Shown here piece after piece: positions 6,249 through 63,896 of a stretch of 64,000 nt of DNA (position 1 is the stretch's first letter; each line of letters starts with the position of its first letter). The position numbers were made by a program, and so were the translations under genes. Source of the stretch: Escherichia phage EC.P2; the sequence record PQ631072.1; one strand, written 5' to 3'. The notes below the pieces were generated by a model, which saw only the letters and a list, made by a program, of their open reading frames with translations, was not told the origin of the DNA and did no database searches.

Positions 6249-6650
6249 ATGAAAAAATTATTGATCGCTGGTTTAATCTATTTTGGCATGGTTGGAACAT
6301 CTAGCGCGGCGATATCCTCCACAGTAGCAGAATTAAGCGCCGTTGATGCAATGGAAAACGTCATGATCATTAATAACGCGATCCCCGATGAAATCATGGA
6401 GGATTCACACATGATCGCTTATGGTGCTGTTACACAATTAACGGCAAAAATAGATAAATCTATTGTTAATGGCTTAAATGAAGATGTGCCATGTGAAATT
6501 ATTACCAGTGTGCTCACTACTCAAAATTTTACGCCGTGGTTAAAAAGTATTCAAAAAGTACACAGTACAGCCGCAGATCGTAGCAATGAAAAACTAGTGT
6601 CAGCACTTGCAACGTATACCCTAGCAAAATGTACCGAGATAAAAGATTGA
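6249..6650 (+). CDS. Putative secreted protein with N-terminal signal peptide (133 aa)
   Basis: MKKLLIAGLIYFGMVGTSSAA hydrophobic leader. Confidence 0.5.
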   Translation: MKKLLIAGLIYFGMVGTSSAAISSTVAELSAVDAMENVMIINNAIPDEIMEDSHMIAYGAVTQLTAKIDKSIVNGLNEDVPCEIITSVLTTQNFTPWLKSIQKVHSTAADRSNEKLVSALATYTLAKCTEIKD

Positions 6651-24744: not shown

Positions 24745-25557
24745 TTATTTAGTCAAATGATCTTCTATCATTTTTATGAAAGCAGGATTGCTAAAAGCAT
24801 CTGCGGCTTTTTCTCGATAAACAAAGACTCCTCTATCTTCGTAAAGAAGAGTTTCTTCGTAATTAATTCCTGGGTTAACAACAATCATTTTTGTACCCAT
24901 ATTAAGTGCAGGGAATAATTCCCAATTAAAATTGATAACTTGGTTTGAACATCCTACTACAACAACCAAATCTTGCATGGTCAAAGTATCAAACAAGTGA
25001 GCCATATCTGCATACAAAGGTGCAGCCTCACCAAAAAATACAACATTAGGCTTCACCCAGTTATAATCATCTATGTTTATGCTGTTGTAACCAATATCTA
25101 CCAGTGTTTTGTAATCTCCAGGATGCATACGGTAAACTACTTCAGGAAGATATCCGTGCACGTGAATAACCGAATCTCTGTCTACACCTGCTCGCTCTAG
25201 TAGATCATCAACGTTTGTTGTCAAGTTTATTACTTGGTTAGGATATTCCTTAAACCACTTTGCTATTTGAATATGTGCAGCATTAGGTTGTACATCTTTA
25301 AGCTCAACACGTCTTTTGTTATAAAATTCGTGTGTTTTGGCATACAAATCCATACCATTTTCGTCTACACCACCAACCACTGGAAGATCTGGAGATGTTC
25401 TCACACGATAACCTGCTTGGAAAGCTCCAATATCGCAGACCTCTTCTAAATCATATTCTTCCCATAAAGCACGACCACTATCTGTGTCTGTTCGGAATGT
25501 TCGAATCCCACTGTCTGCACTTAAACCTGCACCACTGACAAAAATTACTCTTCGCAT
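24745..25557 (-). CDS. Sir2-family (sirtuin-like) NAD+-dependent enzyme, no zinc-ribbon cysteines (270 aa)
   Basis: GAGLSADSGIRTFR, TTNVDDL, HG and VVFFGE motifs; no CxxC pairs. Confidence 0.7.
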   Translation of the reverse strand: MRRVIFVSGAGLSADSGIRTFRTDTDSGRALWEEYDLEEVCDIGAFQAGYRVRTSPDLPVVGGVDENGMDLYAKTHEFYNKRRVELKDVQPNAAHIQIAKWFKEYPNQVINLTTNVDDLLERAGVDRDSVIHVHGYLPEVVYRMHPGDYKTLVDIGYNSINIDDYNWVKPNVVFFGEAAPLYADMAHLFDTLTMQDLVVVVGCSNQVINFNWELFPALNMGTKMIVVNPGINYEETLLYEDRGVFVYREKAADAFSNPAFIKMIEDHLTK

Positions 25558-36687: not shown

Positions 36688-36954
36688 TTACTCCGCAATC
36701 TGAGCCATGAATTCACGTAGTTCAGAAAAACCTCCTACGTGGGTTAGATGTTCACCATCTTCCACAAAAATTTGAGGGAAGGTACGTGGCAGAACACCTG
36801 TTTTCTCTAAAACCAGATTCTGAATCTGATCTAAAGAATAGTCTTCATCTAAGGTAAGGTATTTAAAATCCTGTTCACGCTGTTCTAGCAGAATTTTAGC
36901 GTTAGTGCAGAAAGGACAATTTGGTTTACCGTAGATAATAAAATTCATTTTCAC
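36688..36954 (-). CDS. Glutaredoxin-like protein (CPFC active site)
   Basis: IYGKPNCPFCTNAK motif; 88 aa. Confidence 0.75.
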   Translation of the reverse strand: MKMNFIIYGKPNCPFCTNAKILLEQREQDFKYLTLDEDYSLDQIQNLVLEKTGVLPRTFPQIFVEDGEHLTHVGGFSELREFMAQIAE

Positions 36955-37781
36955 TCCTTGTTTAAAAGTATAGTTAAAGTTCTTACAATACCGCTATCAA
37001 CACTTCGCGGATTTAAAGTAGGATCTGTTTTTAAATAAGATGTTGCTGGTCTGACTGCTTTAGAATTATAGGTTGAAGCAGATACAGGATTAACTGTAAC
37101 AGATAAATCTATAACAAGAAATATCTTTCGTGCAAAATCATACCAAGAAATATAATCTGCACCTGCATAGTGTACAATTTTACTATTTACACCATCTTTT
37201 ACAAGTTTAAAAATTGTTTCTGCCAGATCAGGTGCATAAGTAGGACATGATAAATGATCACATACTACATTAAATTCTTTTTGACCACCGTTGTAGCGTT
37301 CCAACATAGTTTTCAAAAAGTTATGTCCAAACTCACTATAAACAGAAGCTGTTCTGATAATAAGTGCTGTAGGACAAACTGTTTGTACTAAAGTTTCACC
37401 TAATTGTTTACTGTAACCATAGGTGTTCAAGGGGTTTGTTTTACTATCTTCTGTGCCAGCGACATGCCCATCAAAAACATAGTCTGTTGAAATATGTACA
37501 AACTGTATCAGTAAATCATTACATGCTTTGGCAATGTTTGTTGCACCGTATGCATTAACATTTATACAGGTGTTAACATCTTCTTCAGCTTTATCTACTG
37601 CTGTGTAAGCCGCACAATTCACAACAACATCAGGCACGTGCTGTACAAGACTATTCATAACATCTTTAAAGTTGGTAATGTCTATATCACTTGCTTCAAT
37701 CAAAATAACATCTTCTGGCGCAACTTTTGCCAAAGACTGTCCTAATTGACCTTTTGAACCAAAGATTAAAAATTTTGTCAA
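36951..37781 (-). CDS. rmlD: dTDP-4-dehydrorhamnose reductase
   Basis: N-terminal FGSKGQLG Rossmann motif; position in rmlBACD cluster. Confidence 0.8.
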   Translation of the reverse strand: MTKFLIFGSKGQLGQSLAKVAPEDVILIEASDIDITNFKDVMNSLVQHVPDVVVNCAAYTAVDKAEEDVNTCINVNAYGATNIAKACNDLLIQFVHISTDYVFDGHVAGTEDSKTNPLNTYGYSKQLGETLVQTVCPTALIIRTASVYSEFGHNFLKTMLERYNGGQKEFNVVCDHLSCPTYAPDLAETIFKLVKDGVNSKIVHYAGADYISWYDFARKIFLVIDLSVTVNPVSASTYNSKAVRPATSYLKTDPTLNPRSVDSGIVRTLTILLNKE

Positions 37782-38332
37782 AATATGATCTCCTTTAGTG
37801 TTTTGGCTTGCTGATCTTTTTGTGACAAGATAGGTTTAAAATTAATATCATTAAAGATTAAATCAAAACCCCAATCTATATTGATATCTGGATCATTCCA
37901 CGCAAGACTACACTCTGAAGTCGGATCGTAATATTCTGTGCATTTATATTCAAAATCAGCAATATCGCTAATCACAACAAAACCATGAGCGAAACCAGGA
38001 GGAATCCAAAATTGTGTTTTATTCTTTTCAGATAAGAGAACACCTACCCATTCTCCAAATGTTGGACTACCAACCCTAATATCTACAGCAACATCATAAA
38101 CTTCACCACGAACACAACGTACTAACTTCCCTTGTGGGTTTTTCTTTTGAAAATGAAGCCCACGTAGAACTCCTCGAATAGAACGTGAATGGTTATCTTG
38201 GACAAAGTTTTGTTTACCTATGTATTGATCATATAAAGCCTGATTAAAACTTTCTAAGAAAAAACCACGTTCATCTCCGTAAACGTCAGGTTGAATGATC
38301 AACAAATCTTCGATTTTTGTTGCTTGAATCAT
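37778..38332 (-). CDS. rmlC: dTDP-4-dehydrorhamnose 3,5-epimerase
   Basis: RGVLRGLHFQ cupin motif; 184 aa. Confidence 0.85.
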   Translation of the reverse strand: MIQATKIEDLLIIQPDVYGDERGFFLESFNQALYDQYIGKQNFVQDNHSRSIRGVLRGLHFQKKNPQGKLVRCVRGEVYDVAVDIRVGSPTFGEWVGVLLSEKNKTQFWIPPGFAHGFVVISDIADFEYKCTEYYDPTSECSLAWNDPDINIDWGFDLIFNDINFKPILSQKDQQAKTLKEIIF

Positions 38333-38344
38333 TTAACTCCCCCT

Positions 38345-39214
38345 TTATTTTAATTTAAGTAAATACTTACCGTAGTCTGTTTTACTTAAAACCTCTCCAG
38401 AACTTCTTACAGAGTCTAAAGTAATCCATTCATTTTTAAAAGCAATCTCTTCTAGGCATGCAACCTTCATCCCTTGTTGCTTTTCTATTGCATGAACAAA
38501 TTGAGATGCTTCCATAAGACTTTCATGTGTTCCTGTATCCAGCCAAGTGAAACCCCTTCCTAGTTTACAGACACGTAAAGTCTTTTCTTTCCAGTACATC
38601 TCATTTATATCTGTAATCTCTAACTCCCCTCTAGCAGAAGGTTTAACGCTCTTAGCTTTCTGTATAACAGAATTATCGTAAAAGTACAAGCCTGTGATTG
38701 CATAGTTGCTTTTTGGTGTTTTTGGTTTTTCTTCAATACTCACCACTGTACCTTCAGAATCAAATTCAACAACACCAAATCTTTCAGGATCATTTACGTG
38801 ATACCCAAAAATATTAGCTCCACCATTCTTTTCAATATGTTCTTTAGCAGAATCTAAAATGCTACCAAAACTCTGACCAAAGAATAAATTATCACCTAGC
38901 ACAAGTGCTACAGAATCTTCACCAATAAAGTTCTCACCAATAATAAAGGCTTCTGCTAAACCTTTTGGGCTGTTCTGTACTGCATACTGTAGGGAAATAC
39001 CAAAAGAAGAACCATCACCTAGAAGATTTACAAAATTAACTTGATCTTCTGGTGTTGTAATTATTAGTATTTCCCTAATTCCAGAAAGCATTAGGACAGA
39101 GAGTGGATAATAAATCATAGGCTTATCGTAAATTGGTAATAGTTGTTTACTAACCCCTTTAGTAACTGGGTAAAGTCTTGTTCCACTACCACCTGCTAAG
39201 ATAATACCTTTCAT
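38345..39214 (-). CDS. rmlA: Glucose-1-phosphate thymidylyltransferase
   Basis: [19 protein letters not shown]-terminus; 289 aa. Confidence 0.9.
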
Positions 39215-39222
39215 ACTCCTCC

Positions 39223-40212
39223 TTAAACTTTATTTTCCCACCACTCTTTGTTATCTACATACCAATCAATGGTTGAATAAAGTTTTTCTTCAAATGTGCC
39301 TTTAGCTTTCCACCCTAATTCCTTTTCAATCTTATAAGGATTCACTTCGTATCTTAAATCATGCCCAGGTCTATCTGTAACCATCTCAATGAGGCTACAA
39401 GCATCTGTTTCAGATGGATACACCGCATCCATATAATCACAAATCATATAGATTACATCAATATTAGTTCTAGGGTTTCTGCTTCCAATATTATATGTTT
39501 CTCCAGGTTTGCCTTTAGTTACTACTAGGTGTAATGCTTCTGCGTGATCGTCAACGTATAACCAATCTCTTACTTGAAGACCATTACCATAAACAGGGAT
39601 TGGTTTATGCATCAAGATATTTGTTATCGTTTTAGGTATTAGTTTTTCTGGATGATGATATGCTCCAAAATTATTTGAACAATTTGTTATAACTGTCGGA
39701 ACACCATAAGTACGATGCCACGCTCTTACCAAATGATCGCTTGCTGCCTTAGATGCAGCATATGGACTACTTGGCTTATAAGGATTCTGTTCTGTAAACG
39801 GATAATCCCCTTCTTCCAGATCACCATACACTTCATCTGTTGAAATATGATGGAACATTTTAAGATTTGATTTATCTCCCATTAAACGAACAGCTTCTAG
39901 AAGATTAAATGTCCCAACAATATTTGAATTTATAAAAACACTCGGTGATGCTATTGAATTATCTACGTGACTTTCTGCTGCAAGATGCATTATATAATCT
40001 GGATTAACATCTGCCACAATCTTAGCAGTTAACTGCGCATTTGTCAAGTCAACACGACAAAACTTTACATTAGGTGTTTCTGATAAATTTCTAGGGTCTG
40101 AAGCGTAACCCCATTTATCTATAACGTAAATATCATTCTTAGTATTTTTAGCCAGGAAACGAACTACTGCACTTCCAATAAAGCCTAAACCACCTGTTAC
40201 TAAGTATTTCAT
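39223..40212 (-). CDS. rmlB: dTDP-glucose 4,6-dehydratase
   Basis: [18 protein letters not shown]-terminus; 329 aa SDR. Confidence 0.85.
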
Positions 40213-52697: not shown

Positions 52698-53420
52698 TTA
52701 AGCAATGATTGCTGCGATATTAGGTTTAACAAAGGTAGATGGTTTCATAATTTTACCTTTGTCATCAAAGAATACGTATACCTTTTGAACTTCGTTATAT
52801 ACAGCATGTACTCCAGTATAAGAACCTTCTGCACGATCTTTGCTTCGCATCTCGATAGCATCACACTCTTTTTCAAGAGCTTCAACAATATCCTTAGTTT
52901 CCCAAATAGCCAGGAGTTGCTTCTTGGTAGGATACTTGGACTCATTGCTATTCAACACTTCACGCATAACCTTCTTCTCGTTATAAACAGAACGCACCAA
53001 AGTATCTCGTGCCATACGTGTAAGTGTAAGAGACATTAGGGCAAATTGCAAGTCATTTTCTACCATTTTATCAAATTCAATGATAACATCGTAGATGTTT
53101 TCTGCCAGAACATCTCCTGTCGGCATTTCCAGAGCTTTATCAACACCTTCTTTACCAAAGAACATAAACGCCAGGTAGGATGCTACCACAAAAATATCTG
53201 CTGCTGCATCAAGTAATTCAACGTGATCATTTTCCTGTGCTGCTGCTTGGAACTCTTTTAGTTCTTCTCGTACAAAAGAAAGTTGAGCTTCAAACATCTC
53301 TTGAGTAAATTCTGGGGTTACGCCACCACGTGCCTTAGCATTCCAAGCAACAATTTGATCGGCAGCCTTGATAAAGAAGCTATTGTCCACTTTTACTTGT
53401 TTGAAAAAATTCTCGATCAT
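52698..53420 (-). CDS. MazG-like nucleotide pyrophosphohydrolase, putative
   Basis: EELKEF ... ELLDAAADIFVV resembles the MazG ExxE ... D metal-binding helices; weak. Confidence 0.3.
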   Translation of the reverse strand: MIENFFKQVKVDNSFFIKAADQIVAWNAKARGGVTPEFTQEMFEAQLSFVREELKEFQAAAQENDHVELLDAAADIFVVASYLAFMFFGKEGVDKALEMPTGDVLAENIYDVIIEFDKMVENDLQFALMSLTLTRMARDTLVRSVYNEKKVMREVLNSNESKYPTKKQLLAIWETKDIVEALEKECDAIEMRSKDRAEGSYTGVHAVYNEVQKVYVFFDDKGKIMKPSTFVKPNIAAIIA

Positions 53421-55475: not shown

Positions 55476-55880
55476 TTATTGTAGCTTAAGTGAACTGCGA
55501 AGACGTTTCTCTTGCTGATCACGAATATGTTGTGGAACCTCATGAATTGAGTCGTTACCGTGCCTATTTTCAACAACTAAGGAGATAACTTGATAACCAA
55601 ACTCTTCAGCAAGAGTAAAATAAGGTTTAAGTTCTTTCTCTGTGGTTGAAGTGTTAGAGACAATAATCTTTTTAATATTAGATGCCATAGCATCACGAAC
55701 AATACTCTGACACCATGCGTGTGCTTTACCTACATTCTCTGGCTTCCAATCGTAAACACCACTATCTGTGTAATGATATTGATCTGCCTCACAGATAGGC
55801 CAATAACCTTCAGAAATAATTTCTGCTACTGTAGATTTACCTGCACCTGAAACACCACGTAAGATGATAAGTTGTTTCAT
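55476..55880 (-). CDS. P-loop kinase, polynucleotide-kinase-like
   Basis: Walker A LRGVSGAGKST; adjacent to RNA-ligase-like gene. Confidence 0.5.
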   Translation of the reverse strand: MKQLIILRGVSGAGKSTVAEIISEGYWPICEADQYHYTDSGVYDWKPENVGKAHAWCQSIVRDAMASNIKKIIVSNTSTTEKELKPYFTLAEEFGYQVISLVVENRHGNDSIHEVPQHIRDQQEKRLRSSLKLQ

Positions 55881-56813
55881 TTAGCCTCCAAAGAAGTTTT
55901 CTATTTCTTTACGTCGCTCTTGTGGATCTAAAGCAGCCCATTGAGTTTTAGTAAAGTTGTTTCGAAGCCATTCTAGCAAAGTATAATATTCTTCGTCAAC
56001 AATTTGTTTAGCATTTTTTGGGTTGTCCCAAATCATATCCCACTTCTTATTGCCACCACGCATAAGGAATTTCTTAGCAAGATAGTATGGTGACTTAATC
56101 TTTAACAGCAAGTTAAACGGATAGTTTGTTTCACGAACAACAAACCCTTCGTGCTTACAATGTTTAGACATTTCAACAACATCTGAAAATTTAATCATCG
56201 GATAAACTTCAGGACGTTTAAATTTTGTAATAGATGCAATCCCATCAAGCACACCTTCAGGTAGCATGAAACTTGTCCCATCAGGATTTTGAATCCTTGC
56301 TCCAATTAAGTATGCGCCTGGTTCTTCTTCAACAATATGTGGATCAGAAGGATCACAGATTTCAAAAAGGAAAGTTGCTTTTGCACTTTCTGTCCACTTA
56401 ATGAAATATTCTATGTCATCACACTCGGAAACAATATGATTCTTGGCAAGAATTGCAAAATCTGACTCTAGGCTCCCTGTTGTTGATACAATAAGTTGCC
56501 CTTTGTACACACCTACAGATGCCATAAAACCGTTTACTTTACGGACAGCATCTACAAGCTGGTCTGCTGGAAGATCTGTACCATTCTCAAAACGATTAAA
56601 GATTTTAGTAAAAGGCCAAATAACAACATTGTCTTCTGAGTCAACAACCAACCCACGACAATCTAGAAGGCGTTTGTCTACGTCCCACAAGTTGTCCCAG
56701 AATACATTGTTTTTGTATTTAAGTACAGCAAGACCAGCATACTCTCCAGATTTAACTTCTTTTTTATGCACTAAACCTTTTGCAATCAGGTCATCACAAT
56801 TGAACTTAGCCAC
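55881..56813 (-). CDS. RNA ligase, T4 Rnl1-like (putative)
   Basis: LLDCRGLVV ... KIFNRFENG and KVNGFM resemble T4 RnlA LECRGIMF ... FFNLNEN and KEDG as recalled. Confidence 0.5.
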   Translation of the reverse strand: MAKFNCDDLIAKGLVHKKEVKSGEYAGLAVLKYKNNVFWDNLWDVDKRLLDCRGLVVDSEDNVVIWPFTKIFNRFENGTDLPADQLVDAVRKVNGFMASVGVYKGQLIVSTTGSLESDFAILAKNHIVSECDDIEYFIKWTESAKATFLFEICDPSDPHIVEEEPGAYLIGARIQNPDGTSFMLPEGVLDGIASITKFKRPEVYPMIKFSDVVEMSKHCKHEGFVVRETNYPFNLLLKIKSPYYLAKKFLMRGGNKKWDMIWDNPKNAKQIVDEEYYTLLEWLRNNFTKTQWAALDPQERRKEIENFFGG

Positions 56814-56814
56814 C

Positions 56815-57366
56815 TTAATCTCCTTTGATTATCTTATGATGGTCTACAACAACAATATCACGCTTATCCATAATAGAGATGATTTCGTCAAAATGCAAGA
56901 TTTTTCCGTGTGCGTCCCAACCAACATCCAACATTTTCCCATACAAATGATCAGGGAATGATCCGTGAGAGTGCCCGTGTAGCATGATTGATCCATGCCC
57001 TTGTTTATTCCAGGAAGCCATAGGGTAATGGCTTAAGACGAAGAACAGTTTCTGATATTTCACTTCATCATAATACACCACCTCGCCATATTCTGCAAGC
57101 ACTTCTCGGTGTTTGCTGTAATCATGGTTCCCAACACAGTAAGTGATATCACCTTGGAGACGGGAAGCAATCTTACGGGTATCTTCTTCAGTCCCGAAAC
57201 AGAAGTCCCCAAGATGGTACATCTTTACTCCTGGTGTTGTGGCACATTTATTCCATGCTTCGATCAGTGCTTCTGTCATATGCTCCATATCTTCCCACGG
57301 GCGATATTCAGGAGCAAACTCTCGGATACGTTTGTGCATAAAATGCAAATCACTTGTAATAAACAT
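56815..57366 (-). CDS. Calcineurin-like metallophosphoesterase
   Basis: DLHF, GDF, GNHD, GHSH metal-binding motifs. Confidence 0.7.
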   Translation of the reverse strand: MFITSDLHFMHKRIREFAPEYRPWEDMEHMTEALIEAWNKCATTPGVKMYHLGDFCFGTEEDTRKIASRLQGDITYCVGNHDYSKHREVLAEYGEVVYYDEVKYQKLFFVLSHYPMASWNKQGHGSIMLHGHSHGSFPDHLYGKMLDVGWDAHGKILHFDEIISIMDKRDIVVVDHHKIIKGD

Positions 57367-57725
57367 TAGTATAATCCCTCGCTGAATAGTTCACTGTCGT
57401 GACCATTTCTTTCGTAGTTAATTTGTTTGGCGTTATCTGCAATGATATAAGCATCTTTGCGACTCCACCAGTTATAATACTGGTCAATAAACCCTTGATT
57501 ATCAGGTAAGCAAAACAGTTTATCAATCAATCCTGCATCTTTTAAAACATTAATTTGTGCAGATAGTACAGGATTCGCATGCCTAACACAAGGAATAATT
57601 AACTCTTCGCCATTGTTGAGAATATACTTATTCGCAGCGCAGACTATAACACGTTGAGCATAGTGATCCTCACCAATCCAAGTAAGAGGTTGGTAACAAA
57701 TATCATGTTGATTAGTAGTGCACAT
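57366..57725 (-). CDS. Hypothetical Cys-containing protein (119 aa)
   Basis: ORF, ATGA overlap with upstream gene. Confidence 0.45.
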   Translation of the reverse strand: MCTTNQHDICYQPLTWIGEDHYAQRVIVCAANKYILNNGEELIIPCVRHANPVLSAQINVLKDAGLIDKLFCLPDNQGFIDQYYNWWSRKDAYIIADNAKQINYERNGHDSELFSEGLY

Positions 57726-57871
57726 CAATTTTCTTCATACTCTTCGTCTGTATGTATATCGTAAAAGCAATCTTCAAAAGTTGCAAGTGCTTTTTCTACA
57801 TCGGGCCAATGGTTAGTGTGTTTGTATATATAAAACCCATCCCCTTCATCTACCCAAATAACATAAAGCAT
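57725..57871 (-). CDS. Small acidic hypothetical protein (48 aa)
   Basis: AAGGAGG RBS; below track cutoff. Confidence 0.35.
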   Translation of the reverse strand: MLYVIWVDEGDGFYIYKHTNHWPDVEKALATFEDCFYDIHTDEEYEEN

Positions 57872-57880
57872 AACACCTCC

Positions 57881-58222
57881 TTAATAGTTAACACGTTTAA
57901 TTTCAACACCATAGGATGAAATAAAATTTTCCTTAGCTAACATATATTTACCAGCAGCAGAAGGGTTTGATGTATGGACATAGATAGTTTTAAGAGCATC
58001 CCATTCACCCGCATACAACATACATTCTACGTCTAAGAATGCATGATATCCTTCCTGATCTTCTCCAAGATCATTATCGAAGTGTATCTCTGAGATATTA
58101 TTGAAATTATCTTCATCTGAAACAAAAGATAACCAATCCTCAAAAGATTTTAACCAAATGGCATCCTCATAACCATAATCTTTAGGATCTCTTAAATCGT
58201 CTAACCAAAGAATTTTAGCCAC
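57881..58222 (-). CDS. Hypothetical protein (113 aa, GTG start with GGGGG RBS)
   Basis: Track ORF trimmed; no ATG available. Confidence 0.4.
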   Translation of the reverse strand: MAKILWLDDLRDPKDYGYEDAIWLKSFEDWLSFVSDEDNFNNISEIHFDNDLGEDQEGYHAFLDVECMLYAGEWDALKTIYVHTSNPSAAGKYMLAKENFISSYGVEIKRVNY

Positions 58223-58224
58223 TA

Positions 58225-58416
58225 TCAACCCCCTTCTTGTTTCTCTTCTTTCCAAGTTTTACCATTATCTACCAACCTCTTAGAAACAGCAAATCTTTCT
58301 CCATTGATATAAAACAAATAAAGAATAAAGGATTTTCCTATAGTTACAGTATCTACTACTTCTACACGCTTCACACCTTGCATGTATTTGGCTTTACCTG
58401 AATAAATAAGGAACAT
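58225..58416 (-). CDS. Hypothetical protein (63 aa)
   Basis: ORF. Confidence 0.4.
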   Translation of the reverse strand: MFLIYSGKAKYMQGVKRVEVVDTVTIGKSFILYLFYINGERFAVSKRLVDNGKTWKEEKQEGG

Positions 58417-59479: not shown

Positions 59480-59848
59480 CTAATTAATGTCAGCACTATG
59501 ATTGTTGAGAGTATAGGATACTCCATCGCCCAAGTCAACATGAATCTCAACTCCTAACTGTCTTTCTAATGGTAAACGTTTTGAGAATTGATAATTACAA
59601 AGTTTACAGTCTAAGTCAAGCAACTCATGTTTGCTTAAACCTGCAACGATAACTTTGCTTCCCACTGTCCACTCAATACCTTCAAAGTTATCTCTTCTTT
59701 TCAAAATGTCAAGTAAGAAGATTATTTGTTGCCATTCCGTAGACAAGTCTTCTTCATAGAATGCAGAACAAAAAGTTTTATCATCGTAGAAAGCATACAT
59801 TATGCCTCCATCTATTGTTTCACTTCTAACGTAACGTGTGACCCTCAT
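59480..59848 (-). CDS. Hypothetical protein (122 aa), first gene of minus-strand block
   Basis: Trimmed to ATG with AGGAGGG RBS. Confidence 0.5.
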   Translation of the reverse strand: MRVTRYVRSETIDGGIMYAFYDDKTFCSAFYEEDLSTEWQQIIFLLDILKRRDNFEGIEWTVGSKVIVAGLSKHELLDLDCKLCNYQFSKRLPLERQLGVEIHVDLGDGVSYTLNNHSADIN

Positions 59849-60189
59849 TATTCCCTCCTGTATGGCTCTGTAACGAGCTAATAGCACCTAAGATATGCAA
59901 TCACCTTACCTCACAGTAAAACTCGTTACAATCGTTTTTAGGAGGTTCAGGTTGTACTTAAAAATAATCTAAAAAGGTGTTGACAAACGCAAAAAAGTAT
60001 GCTACCCTAACCCCCGAAAAACGCCGAGCGCAGCGAGGGGGTGTTATCTAATCTTGTGATACATGATCTAACAGACAACTGAGTAGTCTACATATAGCAC
60101 TATGTTATGTCTATAATACTAACATACATGCTCTATACTAACAATAGATTATTTATTAATTTTATTATTAATTAAATAATAAATATCTA

Positions 60190-60218
60190 TTGACTTTAGA
60201 TCTATCTGTATGTAGAGT
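60190..60218 (+). promoter_or_regulatory. sigma70-like promoter (ttgact-N17-tagagt) for prs-like gene
   Basis: Hexamers read directly; RBS aaggag follows. Confidence 0.55.
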
Positions 60219-60257
60219 AGAGAACATAAAGTCCTAACTCAACTAAGGAGATAAAGA

Positions 60258-61151
60258 ATGAAAGTTAGTATTCTGCATGGTGTTGACTGTTATGTTACTG
60301 ATGTAGACGTTAAAGTGTTTACATTCTCTGGTGGAGAACAACATGTTCAATTAGATACGAATCTATCAGGTTTCAATCATGCTACAGACAGAATCTTACT
60401 CACTTTAGAAGTAAGATCTGCTAAAGACTTGATGACTTTGGTTATGACTAAGAATGCATTGGACAATATGCTATATCATAAACCATATTGTGTTGATTTA
60501 CTCATGTTGTATGTGCCGTATGCACGACAAGACAGAGTGTGTGAGCCTGGGGAAGCATTCGGAGTTAAAGCATTTGCTTCTATAATTAATTCATTAAATT
60601 TCTCACGTGTTATCGTTGCTGATCCGCATAGTGATGTTACTCCAGCAGTGTTTGACAGACTCTGTGTAATACCTCAAGAAGAGATTGCTTACGAAACTTT
60701 AAAGTGGAAGTTACGTATGGAGAATTTTGCTCTTGTTAGCCCTGATGGTGGTGCTCTTAAGAAAATATTTAAATTATCTAAGAAAATGTCTTTAGATGTG
60801 TTCTGTGCAGAGAAGGTTAGAGATACCGCAACAGGTGCTATTGTTCGTACAGACATTTCTGTACAGGATTTCAATAAGCGTAACCTGATGATCGTAGATG
60901 ATATCTGTGATGGTGGTAGAACTTTTATCGAATTGGCTAAAGTGCTACGTGCTCGTAACGCAGGTAAGATTGAGCTATATGTTACGCACGGTATCTTTTC
61001 TAAAGGTCTTAAAGAGTTAAGTGAGCACTTTGACTGCATTCATTCTCTTAATGTGTGGGAAGATAACATCCAAGAAGATTCTGGTGTTCTTGTTAAGAAT
61101 CAGTCAGATTTGCAACAACAAATTGTATCTCCATACGTGTGGAATTTTTAA
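60258..61151 (+). CDS. prs: Ribose-phosphate pyrophosphokinase (Prs) family protein; candidate ADPR-PP synthetase of a NARP1-like module
   Basis: YARQDR, VSPDGGA and IVDDICDGGRT Prs-type motifs. Confidence 0.8.
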   Translation: MKVSILHGVDCYVTDVDVKVFTFSGGEQHVQLDTNLSGFNHATDRILLTLEVRSAKDLMTLVMTKNALDNMLYHKPYCVDLLMLYVPYARQDRVCEPGEAFGVKAFASIINSLNFSRVIVADPHSDVTPAVFDRLCVIPQEEIAYETLKWKLRMENFALVSPDGGALKKIFKLSKKMSLDVFCAEKVRDTATGAIVRTDISVQDFNKRNLMIVDDICDGGRTFIELAKVLRARNAGKIELYVTHGIFSKGLKELSEHFDCIHSLNVWEDNIQEDSGVLVKNQSDLQQQIVSPYVWNF

Positions 61152-61161
61152 ATAATAAGTG

Positions 61162-61190
61162 TTGACAATAGGGAGTATGCTTAGTAAGAT
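61162..61190 (+). promoter_or_regulatory. sigma70-like promoter (TTGACA-N17-taagat) overlapped by inverted repeat gggagtat/atactccc
   Basis: Hexamers and 8-bp inverted repeat read directly. Confidence 0.5.
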
Positions 61191-61222
61191 ACTCCCACAT
61201 TAACAAACAAGGAGACATAACT

Positions 61223-62956
61223 ATGAATATTTTTGCACCTTTTGCTACTGATTGGTACAAACCTGGTCACAAGCAGATGTACAACCAAAATACAAAACTT
61301 ATTTTCTCTAATTTAACTCCTCGTAATGATAAAAACTTTGCACACTATGCAGATCGTGAAGCACGTGGTGTGATTGTTTTAGGTATTCGTCGAGCAGTCA
61401 CTGATGCTCTTGTAACTATGTGGGATAGCTTCTTTAAAATGTCTCGTAGTGCAGCAGTAAATAAGTTTTATCGTATGTCTAAAAATGCATTAGGTGCTTC
61501 TGCGCCTTCTGCTGAATGTTGGGGAGAATTGCACGACTTAGGTTATCTTCCGCTGGAAGTTCGATCTCTGCCAGAGGGTGTTTTGTGTCCTATTGGTGTT
61601 CCTGTATTTACTGTGCATAATACTTTAGAAAAATTCTTTTGGTTAACTAACTATGTGGAAACACTGTTGTCAGATGAAACTTGGAAGACAATGACTAATG
61701 CCACAGCAGCTTTTCAGTATAAGCGTATCGCTATGGCATATGCGATGGCAACGTGTGATAATATTGATCACGTTAACTTCCAGTGTCATGATTTTAGCCT
61801 ACGTGGTTTAAGTAATATCGAAGATGGTTATAAGAGTGGTATCGCTCACTTGGCATCGTTCACAGGAACAGATAATATTCTGGCTATTGAAACTGTGCAT
61901 GATTATTATGGTATTGATTATGATCAGTTTGTTGCAGGTTCGATTCCGGCAACAGAACATTCAGTAGCAACGACTAACATTGGAGCTATTGTTGAAGATC
62001 TGAAGAAACATTTCCCACATCTTAAAGATGATGTAGATGGGCTTCGTTATGTAGCAGAAAAAGAGTTTCTTCGTCGTTATATCGAAGAAATTGTTCCAGA
62101 AGGTTTTTGTTCATATGTAGCAGACTCTTATGACTATTGGGCTGTATTGACTCGCATTCTGGTAGAATTGAAAGATTCCATTATGTCACGAAATGGTCGT
62201 CTTGTTATTCGTCCAGATTCAGGAGATCCGGTTAAAGTTGTTGCAGGATACAATGTTGAATCTTTTGATAACTATGAAGACCTTTTAAATAATGGTATTG
62301 CGACAGCCACTGAAGTAGTTCATTTGGCTGATGTTAATAAGTATTACAATGTTCTTCAGGATTGCAGTGTTGCTGATTGCATTGATGAAACTTATGAGAT
62401 TCCTTATTGTGAAGCAGTAGGTTCTATTCAAATTCTTTGGGAAGTGTTTGGTGGTACTATCAACCGAAAAGGCTACAAGGTTCTTGATCAGCATATCGGT
62501 ATGATTTATGGTGATTCTATTACTGTTGAACGAGAACACGAGATCTTACGCCGACTGAAGAAGAAAGGTTTTGCAGCTTCCAATATTGTATTTGGTGTTG
62601 GTAGTTATACTTATCAGTTCAATACACGAGATACTTTTGGTTTTGCTGTTAAAGCAACAGGTAGTATCATCGGTGAACACGAAATTTTGGTAAGTAAGGA
62701 GCCTAAAACTGATCCTGGTAAACGCTCTGCAAAAGGTTTTATTAAGGTTGTTAAGGATACCAATGGTAATCTTTCTCTTGTAGATAATCTTTCTTTTAAA
62801 GATATCCAGGATGAAGACAATGAGTTACAAGTTATCTTCAAGAATGGTAAGGTTATTACACCACAAGTAGAAGGTCGTGATGAAACATTCACTGATATCC
62901 GCAACCGTGTTGATGTAGAGGTTCTTCGTACTATGGGAACCATCCAGGTTGACTAA
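61223..62956 (+). CDS. nadV: Nicotinamide phosphoribosyltransferase (Nampt/NadV) family protein with C-terminal extension
   Basis: N-terminal FATDWYKPGHKQMY characteristic of Nampt; 577 aa. Confidence 0.8.
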   Translation: MNIFAPFATDWYKPGHKQMYNQNTKLIFSNLTPRNDKNFAHYADREARGVIVLGIRRAVTDALVTMWDSFFKMSRSAAVNKFYRMSKNALGASAPSAECWGELHDLGYLPLEVRSLPEGVLCPIGVPVFTVHNTLEKFFWLTNYVETLLSDETWKTMTNATAAFQYKRIAMAYAMATCDNIDHVNFQCHDFSLRGLSNIEDGYKSGIAHLASFTGTDNILAIETVHDYYGIDYDQFVAGSIPATEHSVATTNIGAIVEDLKKHFPHLKDDVDGLRYVAEKEFLRRYIEEIVPEGFCSYVADSYDYWAVLTRILVELKDSIMSRNGRLVIRPDSGDPVKVVAGYNVESFDNYEDLLNNGIATATEVVHLADVNKYYNVLQDCSVADCIDETYEIPYCEAVGSIQILWEVFGGTINRKGYKVLDQHIGMIYGDSITVEREHEILRRLKKKGFAASNIVFGVGSYTYQFNTRDTFGFAVKATGSIIGEHEILVSKEPKTDPGKRSAKGFIKVVKDTNGNLSLVDNLSFKDIQDEDNELQVIFKNGKVITPQVEGRDETFTDIRNRVDVEVLRTMGTIQVD

Positions 62957-63027: not shown

Positions 63028-63249
63028 ATGAAACAACATAATTTTTATTTTCGTTGCCGAGCCTGTAACAGACACTTGACTAATCATTCCCGTAGAGACA
63101 GGAATGGTAATATTCAAGAGTCGGATCTATGCTCGATTTGTACAAGTTTGGCATTCGATGACAGTCCCGAAAGGGTTTATCAACATCAAAGTGTAACTGA
63201 TCTTCTTCTAAATTACACAGCACCAGAGGAGGAATTAGATTTCACATAA
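63028..63249 (+). CDS. Small zinc-ribbon-like protein (73 aa)
   Basis: CRACN ... CSIC pattern. Confidence 0.45.
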   Translation: MKQHNFYFRCRACNRHLTNHSRRDRNGNIQESDLCSICTSLAFDDSPERVYQHQSVTDLLLNYTAPEEELDFT

Positions 63250-63429: not shown

Positions 63430-63696
63430 ATGACAGAACGTACTTATGGTAAAGAACTGATTGAGAAGCACGTATTGATTGATAATAAAGGTGGAGCAAT
63501 CTTTATTTTTGAACCTGAATCAGTTCTTACTGAAAACGAAAATGGTAGCGTTAGCCTTAAAACAGAAAGTTTGGTAATTGACTTCCTTGCTCTTCTGGAT
63601 GAAATGGGGCTTCCTCACGAAGAAGAAGCAGCTATTGCTTTGATTACAGTTCTTCTGGAGAAACGCGAAGCTGGTGAAATGACCCAGTATGCTTAA
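63430..63696 (+). CDS. Hypothetical protein (88 aa)
   Basis: ORF with AAGGAG RBS. Confidence 0.5.
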   Translation: MTERTYGKELIEKHVLIDNKGGAIFIFEPESVLTENENGSVSLKTESLVIDFLALLDEMGLPHEEEAAIALITVLLEKREAGEMTQYA

Positions 63697-63703
63697 TATT
63701 CAA

Positions 63704-63779
63704 GGTTCCATAGCTCACTGACGAGAGCGCACACCTCATAAGTGTCGAGGGCAGGGATTGTAACCCTGGGGAACCACCA
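63704..63779 (+). tRNA. tRNA with CAT anticodon (Met, or Ile if lysidinylated), CCA encoded
   Basis: Manual cloverleaf: acceptor ggttcc/ggaacc, D-stem gctc/gagc, anticodon loop cuCAUaa, T-stem caggg/ccctg. Confidence 0.7.
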
Positions 63780-63810
63780 TTTAAAAGGAGGTGCTATGCA
63801 TCTCCTATAT

Positions 63811-63896
63811 GCAAGTGTGGTGGAATTGGTGATACACATTGTGCTTAAAACGCAACGCTTAAATGATTGAGGGTTCGAATCCCTCCACTTGCACCA
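63811..63896 (+). tRNA. tRNA-Leu (TAA anticodon), type II with long variable arm, CCA encoded
   Basis: Acceptor gcaagtg/cacttgc, anticodon loop cuUAAaa, 13-nt variable arm, T-arm gaggg-ttcgaat-ccctc. Confidence 0.75.

Follow-up and report, generated by a model that had tools for sequence, protein, structure and literature searches.

We analysed a 64,000-nucleotide stretch of the genome of Escherichia phage EC.P2 (sequence record PQ631072.1; referred to throughout as the window), in which two adjacent genes on the + strand very probably form the core two-gene NARP1 module of a Justusliebigvirus coliphage, a reading to which we assign a probability of roughly 0.88. The first gene, adps (60258..61151, +), is predicted from its open reading frame (ORF), its PHROG 619 match and its clade placement to encode an ADP-ribose (ADPR) diphosphokinase of the Adps clade of the Prs family, and the second, namat (61223..62956, +), is predicted from its ORF, Pfam and Protein Data Bank (PDB) matches and clade to encode a nicotinamide ADP-ribose transferase of the Adps-associated clade of the Nampt family. 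An initial annotation, made from the sequence without database searches, had proposed that the pair carries out NARP1-type NAD+ reconstitution; clade placement, the adenine clamp, the catalytic residues, gene adjacency, the failure to find a nicotinamide mononucleotide (NMN) adenylyltransferase (Nmnat) and a listing in a published catalogue all argue for that proposal. The pathway itself has been described: a Prs-like/Nampt-like operon was noticed in four BASEL phages, work with an operon deletion in Bas63 and metabolomics established an action against SIR2-HerA that does not depend on host pncC/nadR, and the SPbetaL1 enzymes were found to convert ADPR and ATP to ADPR-pyrophosphate (ADPR-PP; Adps), and ADPR-PP and nicotinamide to NAD+ (Namat) (Osterman et al. 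2024, bioRxiv 10.1101/2024.02.11.579819).

Both ORFs begin with ATG, encode proteins of 297 and 577 amino acids (aa) and are separated by a spacer of 71 bp. They were located where adjoining Prs-like and Nampt-like genes had been claimed, with domain matches far beyond chance, and the motifs quoted for them were all present: YARQDR, VSPDGGA and (I)VDDICDGGRT start at residues 88, 160 and 213/214 of the 297-aa protein, respectively, and FATDWYKPGHKQMY occupies residues 6-19 of the 577-aa protein. No gene starts at 60190, the start given for the feature; this position belongs to the -35 hexamer of a promoter-like site. The coding strand switches near 60 kb, where the GC skew changes sign, and the pair stands first in the block transcribed rightwards from there; on its 3' side come two small ORFs and then tRNA-Met and tRNA-Leu.

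The phage is a Justusliebigvirus coliphage whose segment is 99.5% identical to that of Escherichia phage vB_EcoM_PHB05 (PHB05). A total of 55 phage records matched the segment at ≥95% identity, all from Stephanstirmvirinae, genus Justusliebigvirus (phi92-like myoviruses of ~148 kb). Codon differences of the pair relative to PHB05 and phage W22 comprised 47 synonymous and 3 non-synonymous substitutions, which shows purifying selection on adps-namat. Among GenBank entries, four labelled 'Campylobacter phage', including C3 (MG065656), the Adps of which is 99% identical, also matched the segment, and the host labels of these records look doubtful.

Judged by model cut-offs and loop sequences, the 297-aa protein is not a canonical ribose-phosphate diphosphokinase. 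It belonged to PHROG 619 ('ribose-phosphate pyrophosphokinase', E 3.8e-91) and matched Pfam Pribosyltran/Pribosyl_synth weakly, above the cut-off, and scored 97.5-98 bits on the canonical Prs models of NCBIfam, for which the cut-offs are 296-297; the sole Prs model that it passed was the broad subfamily model TIGR01251, and narrowly so (118 vs 113 bits). Three hallmarks of Prs were replaced by forms shared with Bas63 Adps, namely DKRRPRxNV by EK186VRDTATGAI, DLHAxQIQGFF by DPHSDVTPAVF and DDxIDTGGT by DDICDGGRT. The first of these replacements is the flexible catalytic loop, assigned by alignment to E185-K186-V-R-D-T-A-T-G-A-I195 (60810..60842, +); all aligned Adps read K-x-R-(D/N)-x-x-(T/G)-G-x-I where Prs reads D-K-R-R-P-R-x-N-V. 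Within it, K186 aligned with K197 of B. subtilis Prs and with K162 of SPbetaL1 Adps, and K162A is the designed active-site mutant of the latter enzyme (Osterman et al. 2024, bioRxiv 10.1101/2024.02.11.579819). The last is the phosphoribosyl-binding loop (residues 214-222; 60897..60923, +), where DDICDGGRT, also found in the Adps of Bas63 and an Erwinia phage, stands in place of the Prs sequence DD(M/I)IDTGGT. The protein was 100% identical to that of phage W22.

The 577-aa protein matched PHROG 448 ('nicotinamide phosphoribosyl transferase', E 1.4e-188) and Pfam NAPRTase (E 5e-38), and it passed the cut-off of the NCBIfam model PRK09198 (463 vs 405 bits). Its best PDB sequence match was SPbetaL1 Namat (9W5X/9W5W; E 1e-118, 400 bits), ahead of H. 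ducreyi NadV (340 bits) and human NAMPT (175 bits), and it was 100% identical to the protein of pEC-M2929-1AR.1 (gene OP177727_00134). An AlphaFold2 model built from 33 homologues had a mean predicted local distance difference test score (pLDDT) of 90.3, and its best Foldseek match was 9W5X. The fold comparison did not separate Namat from Nampt, with a template modelling (TM) score of 0.92 for SPbetaL1 Namat and H. ducreyi NadV alike, and the discrimination therefore rests on sequence motifs and clade placement. By alignment the catalytic, nicotinamide and ribose-phosphate residues were all kept (D10, Y12, F191, R194, D217, H246, R330 and D332), the last six answering to F189, R192, D215, the catalytic His, R306 and D308 of the reference Namat core. 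The selectivity clamp was defined from the SPbetaL1 Namat structures 9W5X/9W5W as a helix with the signature GSX-phi-X-phi-X-phi-TRD, in which aromatics in positions 3 and 7 stack on adenine (Lan et al. 2026, PMC12774641). Here the aligned helix reads G460-S-Y462-T-Y-Q-F466-N-T-R-D470 (62600..62632, +), which fits this signature and puts Y462 and F466 at the adenine-stacking positions. The signature was present in all eight Adps-associated sequences aligned and in none of the four Nampt-type sequences (Adps-less phage Nampts and human NAMPT), which carried GGGLLQxx(T/D)RD at this helix; H. ducreyi NadV carried GAQTYQRNTRD.

For clade placement the two proteins were compared with those of the validated loci of Bas63, SPbetaL1, FADO and ICP1, with the Adps-linked loci of Erwinia phage SNUABM_01, Pseudomonas phage HJ01 and Staphylococcus phage G1, and with the Adps-less loci of Vibrio phage D482, GAP161 and Tauntaun. 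In a neighbour-joining (NJ) tree, the 297-aa protein grouped with the Adps of Bas63, SPbetaL1, FADO and ICP1, with ICP1 NrsA as its sister, and apart from the Prs of E. coli and B. subtilis; identities were 38.7% to ICP1 NrsA, the highest in the set, 31% to Bas63 and 21-23% to the two Prs. The corresponding tree placed the 577-aa protein inside the Adps-associated clade and apart from the Adps-less phage Nampts (D482, GAP161 and Tauntaun) and human NAMPT, with identities of 54% to the Erwinia protein, 42-44% to those of Bas63 and SPbetaL1, and 30-33% to the Adps-less proteins and human NAMPT. Comparison by profile and structure had been put forward by the initial annotation as a check on its proposal, and clade, motifs and bit scores all sided with Adps and Namat, the fold alone being non-discriminating.

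The absence of an Nmnat from the window, claimed from reading alone, was borne out by seed and motif searches of its six-frame ORFs. Phage W22 (complete genome, PV159336), which is collinear and 97-99% identical, served in place of the sequence beyond the window, and the NadD and NadR seeds were approximate sequences. Neither phmmer (--max, E up to 1) for NadD/NadR-like ORFs nor a regular expression for the (H/T)xGH motif returned a candidate among the six-frame ORFs of the window and the whole W22 genome, and no Nmnat is annotated in W22. An Nmnat lying just outside the window, which would have spoken against NARP1, was likewise looked for in the complete W22 genome and not found. NARP2 was not indicated: no Nmnat was found, and the Nampt-family protein lies outside the Adps-less clade and is without GGGLLQ. 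No phage has been found with both NARP1 and NARP2.

In the mechanism that we propose, a host NAD+-depleting defence (SIR2-HerA/Nezha, DSR1/2, type I Thoeris, SEFIR, SPARSA, Kongming and others) would cleave NAD+ to ADPR and nicotinamide. The 297-aa Adps would then pyrophosphorylate C1 of the terminal ribose of ADPR at the expense of ATP, yielding ADPR-PP, and the 577-aa Namat, as a dimer of the Nampt fold, would let nicotinamide displace pyrophosphate to give NAD+ directly, so that NAD+ would be rebuilt without an NMN intermediate or an adenylyltransferase. A preference of Namat for ADPR-PP over phosphoribosyl pyrophosphate (PRPP) would come from the adenine clamp, formed by the Y462/F466 helix and the K37-N-F39 loop of the partner subunit. 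We infer the substrates, products and anti-defence phenotype of the pair by homology to Bas63, SPbetaL1, FADO and ICP1.

The likeliest alternative to this reading is that the pair boosts classical salvage, a true PRPP synthetase and a true Nampt producing NMN that host NadR or PncC/NadD would turn into NAD+, in the manner of NARP2 with a host adenylyltransferase. Automated annotation names the genes accordingly in nearly all GenBank records, the 577-aa protein passes PRK09198 and the 297-aa protein just passes TIGR01251, and SPbetaL1 Namat still makes NMN from PRPP and nicotinamide in vitro; we nevertheless regard the salvage explanation as unlikely, as the aromatic clamp of Namat is present here and missing from every Nampt-type sequence in the comparison, the close bacterial relative H. 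ducreyi NadV among them, both proteins fall in Adps-associated clades, and the Prs loops KRRPRxNV and DxIDTGGT have given way to Adps versions. Very unlikely, in our estimate, is a role in nucleotide supply, in which the Prs-like enzyme would mainly raise PRPP for phage nucleotide synthesis and its pairing with a Nampt-like gene would be incidental. A large set of nucleotide-metabolism genes (ribonucleotide reductases, thymidylate synthase and thymidine kinase) does lie in a neighbouring block on the minus strand, but transcription of the pair diverges from that of the block, the 297-aa protein scores far below canonical Prs models, and adjacency is the rule for these genes, with 97% of Adps-clade genes adjoining Namat (Osterman et al. 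2024, bioRxiv 10.1101/2024.02.11.579819) and the two adjacent in 8/8 phage loci that we examined. That the genes are decaying or inactive remnants without current function is barely credible: no point in its support was found, and against it stand intact frames, good ribosome-binding sites and promoter-like sites, the retention of all catalytic residues, the excess of synonymous substitutions given above and the conservation of the pair across the 55 phage records.

Several observations nonetheless count against assigning the pair to NARP1. Identity to proven proteins is moderate (42-44% for Namat to Bas63/SPbetaL1 and 28-31% for Adps), the NJ trees were small and without bootstrap, and the Prs, NAMPT, NadD, NadR and Macro reference sequences were approximate, the E. 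coli Prs used having 312 aa rather than 315. In the clamp loop, a rule drawn from the SPbetaL1 structures has either an R stacking at the third loop residue, or a K/Y there with the fourth residue stacking (Lan et al. 2026, PMC12774641); the loop TPRNDK37-N38-F39 fits it in part, with K37 in place but followed by N38 and then by the aromatic F39. Conservation of K37 and of F39 across 33 subfamily members is ≥90%. The in vitro conversion of PRPP to NMN retained by SPbetaL1 Namat (Lan et al. 2026, PMC12774641) makes some classical Nampt activity possible for the 577-aa protein as well. A literature search found no enzyme assay or knockout for the Justusliebigvirus lineage.

The lineage of this operon is already catalogued as NARP1. 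Table S1 of Osterman et al. (bioRxiv 10.1101/2024.02.11.579819) gives a Prs-like protein for each of PHB05, ECGD1, alia, JohannJBalmer and PaulScherrer, with 'Namat within 10 genes: Yes', and the sequences given there for these five phages match the 297-aa protein. In Table S2 of the same study, PHB05, ECGD1, alia and JohannJBalmer are each represented by a matching 577-aa protein, classed as 'Adps-associated', with OP177727_00134 of pEC-M2929-1AR.1 as the tree representative of a cluster so labelled. The finding is thus already known from the listing of sister-phage proteins in these tables; pathway, structure and presence in Justusliebigvirus/BASEL phages are published, and there is no new biology in the assignment. 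Some of the four BASEL phages that first drew attention to the operon probably belong to the catalogued lineage. The value of the assignment lies mainly in annotation, as the GenBank names 'ribose-phosphate pyrophosphokinase' and 'nicotinamide/nicotinate phosphoribosyltransferase' predict the wrong chemistry. NARP1 undoes the damage of any defence that cleaves NAD+ to ADPR and nicotinamide (SIR2-HerA, DSR, type I Thoeris and short Argonaute-Sir2), and its presence in a therapeutic-type coliphage therefore helps to predict host range.

Compared with its experimentally validated counterpart in Bas63 (JohannRWettstein genes 79-80), the Justusliebigvirus pair, known from sequence, has the same two-gene order and strand, an E. 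coli host, the Adps loops K-x-R-(D/N)-x-x-T-G-x-I and DDICDGGRT, and the same Namat clamp signature (GSYTYQYMTRD in Bas63 and GSYTYQFNTRD here). It differs in phage family (Felixounavirus vs Justusliebigvirus), in sequence (31% identity for Adps and 42% for Namat) and in its spacer, which is 45 bp in Bas63 and 71 bp with its own promoter-like site here. In SPbetaL1 Namat, the contacts to nicotinamide, NMN and the AMP phosphate are all conserved relative to the 577-aa protein (A362 = S432 here), and F392/Y396 correspond to Y462/F466; the clamp-loop stacker is R40 in SPbetaL1 and K37-N38-F39 here, and the Adps loop reads DDLSSFGGT rather than DDICDGGRT. ICP1 NrsA/NrsB is likewise a two-gene module, has the closest Adps in the set compared and counters Nezha (SIR2-HerA) (10.1101/2024.06.17.599363), whereas its host is Vibrio and its Namat is shorter and without large insertions. 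NARP2 of Vibrio phage KVP40 (Nampt plus a bifunctional Nmnat) also uses a Nampt-fold enzyme and restores NAD+ against depleting defences, but it requires the Nmnat and begins at PRPP, and Nampts of the NARP2 type carry GGGLLQ and are ~30-33% identical to the 577-aa protein. Among relatives of known structure that are not Namats, H. ducreyi NadV (9KE8/9KEO; 340 bits, TM 0.92) is the closest; it has Q and R, not aromatic residues, at the clamp positions (GAQTYQRNTRD), and its 495 aa include no insertions.

Two internal insertions account for most of the unusual length of the 577-aa protein. The initial annotation had rightly taken it to be longer than a typical bacterial NadV (the H. ducreyi chain has 495 aa and the PRK09198 profile 465 positions), but an extra C-terminal domain at about residues 490-577, as it had suggested, was rejected: the alignment with SPbetaL1 Namat reaches query residue 548, equivalent to chain position 480/491, and comparison with 9W5X and eleven homologues traces the additional residues to two internal insertions and a tail of ~10 aa. 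The 86 aa by which it exceeds SPbetaL1 Namat (491 aa) come mainly from these insertions, and the HMMER alignment with 9W5X is interrupted at residues 253-282 and 343-399 of the query. By multiple alignment, insertion 1 spans residues ~254-276 (61982..62050, +; a helical extension in the model) and insertion 2, just after RPDSGDP, residues ~348-393 (62264..62401, +; a small alpha/beta element in the model). Both were modelled with high confidence (pLDDT about 87-96) and are variable in sequence. Insertions stand at the same two positions in the Namats of Bas63 (593 aa), Erwinia phage SNUABM_01 and Pseudomonas phage HJ01, with a longer insertion 2 in Bas63 (345-421); both are confined to Namats of phages that infect Gram-negative hosts, and the SPbetaL1 enzyme that was crystallised has neither. 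We would give a low chance to their being a functional surface module, such as a site where Adps docks transiently and the easily hydrolysed ADPR-PP is channelled, or an element for regulation or for evading inhibitors; otherwise they would be neutral decoration. No stable Adps-Namat complex was found in published work on the SPbetaL1 pair, which has no insertions and is the one pair concerned (Lan et al. 2026, PMC12774641).

A PHROG profile and a metagenomic protein also bear on the architecture of the family. PHROG 12872 (547 profile positions) was matched at positions 9-222 by residues 14-225 of Adps and at positions 221-536 by residues 225-563 of Namat, a two-part match which suggests the existence of Adps-Namat fusions in some phages. 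The metagenomic protein P0099 (867 aa) was considered as such a fusion and rejected, having no similarity to Adps. It is a Namat homologue with an insert of ~290 aa exactly within RPD|SGDP, and this insert, which starts with Cys and ends ...GN before SGDP, looks intein-like in its layout.

By its gene content the module is a plain two-gene NARP1 without the Macro-domain phosphatase (Adpp) or RyDEP accessory genes. Searches by phmmer with two approximate Macro seeds found no Macro-like ORF in the window and the W22 genome, no Macro or RyR (PF02026) Pfam domain was detected in the flanking ORFs scanned (59480-59887, 63028-63249, 63430-63696 and six others), and the 71-bp spacer between adps and namat held no ORF. 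The NARP1-AP operon of Vibrio phage Gary (Adps-Adpp-Namat) and the RyDEP NARP1 of mycobacteriophage DyoEdafos share the core of Adps and Namat but add a Macro-domain ADPR-1''-phosphate phosphatase or a RyR-domain cyclic ADPR (cADPR) glycosidase, whereas the pair here consists of two genes only. As Adpp is absent, the module is predicted to be blind to NAD+ phosphorolysis of the aRES type, which leaves ADPR-1''-phosphate, and would be expected to fail against aRES-type defences. A metallophosphoesterase gene at 56815-57366 (-) was considered as a NARP1 phosphatase and rejected, because the published enzyme is of the Macro-domain type and this gene lies on the opposite strand within an RNA-ligase/kinase/cREC cluster.

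Each gene had been claimed to have its own promoter, and a consensus scan did place a + strand promoter-like site before each, with support at the level of consensus match; separate promoters are therefore plausible. The site 5' of adps (60190..60218, +; TTGACT-17 nt-TAGAGT, 9/12 match) lies inside a 370-bp AT-rich divergent intergenic region, and this upstream region is identical in PHB05 and carries 1 difference in 158 nt in W22. The site in the adps-namat spacer (61162..61190, +) reads TTGACA-17 nt-TAAGAT (10/12 match). Shine-Dalgarno sequences AAGGAG were identified from the sequence 7 nt before the ATG of adps (60245..60250, +) and 8 nt before that of namat (61209..61214, +). Sigma70-like promoters together with strong ribosome-binding sites are consistent with early expression of both genes by host RNA polymerase. 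A + strand scan found no terminator-like or intrinsic terminator site between or after the two genes. Promoter-like sites overall were not enriched in the window (20 vs a shuffled expectation of 15 ± 3.9). The sigma70-like class TTGACW-N17/18-TAAGAT occurred five times in the window where 0.12 were expected (at 6647, 40047 (-), 61162, 62949 and 63370), and three of the five stand before successive genes in the interval 61.1-63.4 kb, at or after the NARP1 pair. Directly 3' of namat lies an ORF of 73 aa resembling a Cys4 zinc ribbon (63028-63249, +), with its own TAAGAT promoter-like site, and after it tRNA-Met (CAT) and tRNA-Leu (TAA) (63704-63896, +) mark the start of the phage tRNA region.

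Elsewhere in the window, the presence of a Sir2-like and a NADAR gene, which the initial annotation had also reported, was confirmed by Pfam for both, the latter being truncated at the window edge. The sirtuin gene (24745-25557, -; PF02146, E 1.5e-22) encodes a protein whose best PDB match was E. coli CobB (1S5P) and which scored well below the NCBIfam CobB cut-offs; by these matches it is CobB-like and not of the defence type. The NADAR gene is cut by the start of the window, which retains its C-terminal 99 aa (1-299, +; PF08719, E 1.2e-23); the full gene in W22 encodes 183 aa (PV159336 136298-136849) and is annotated as hypothetical. It was located by phmmer with a YbiA sequence and then by Pfam, simple regular expressions having missed it. 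Both genes lie 35-60 kb from the adps-namat pair in window coordinates, and we would likewise give a low chance to NARP1, the CobB-like sirtuin and NADAR acting together as an NAD+/ADPR toolkit. The anti-TIR protein Atd1 has been reported in Justusliebigvirus and Phapecoctavirus phages (AntiDefenseFinder paper, PMC11724313) and was not located in the window; if present in the genome, it would give the phage another, independent means of countering TIR/NAD-based defence.

On the strand opposite to the pair and immediately upstream of it, an RNA-repair-like cluster (55476-58255, -) comprises an AAA_33 kinase (55476-55880, -), an RNA ligase of the T4 Rnl1 type (55881-56813, -), the calcineurin-like phosphoesterase considered above (56815-57366, -) and a 'cyclic-phosphate processing receiver' cREC_REC protein (57881-58255, -), and may be a counter-measure to tRNA-cleaving defences. 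A protein with a MazG/PRA-PH-type nucleotide pyrophosphohydrolase domain is encoded at 52698-53420 (-; PF01503, E 3e-7). A complete dTDP-rhamnose pathway was assigned from the W22 and PHB05 annotation to 36951-40212 (-), with genes for dTDP-4-dehydrorhamnose reductase, the 3,5-epimerase, glucose-1-phosphate thymidylyltransferase and dTDP-glucose 4,6-dehydratase.

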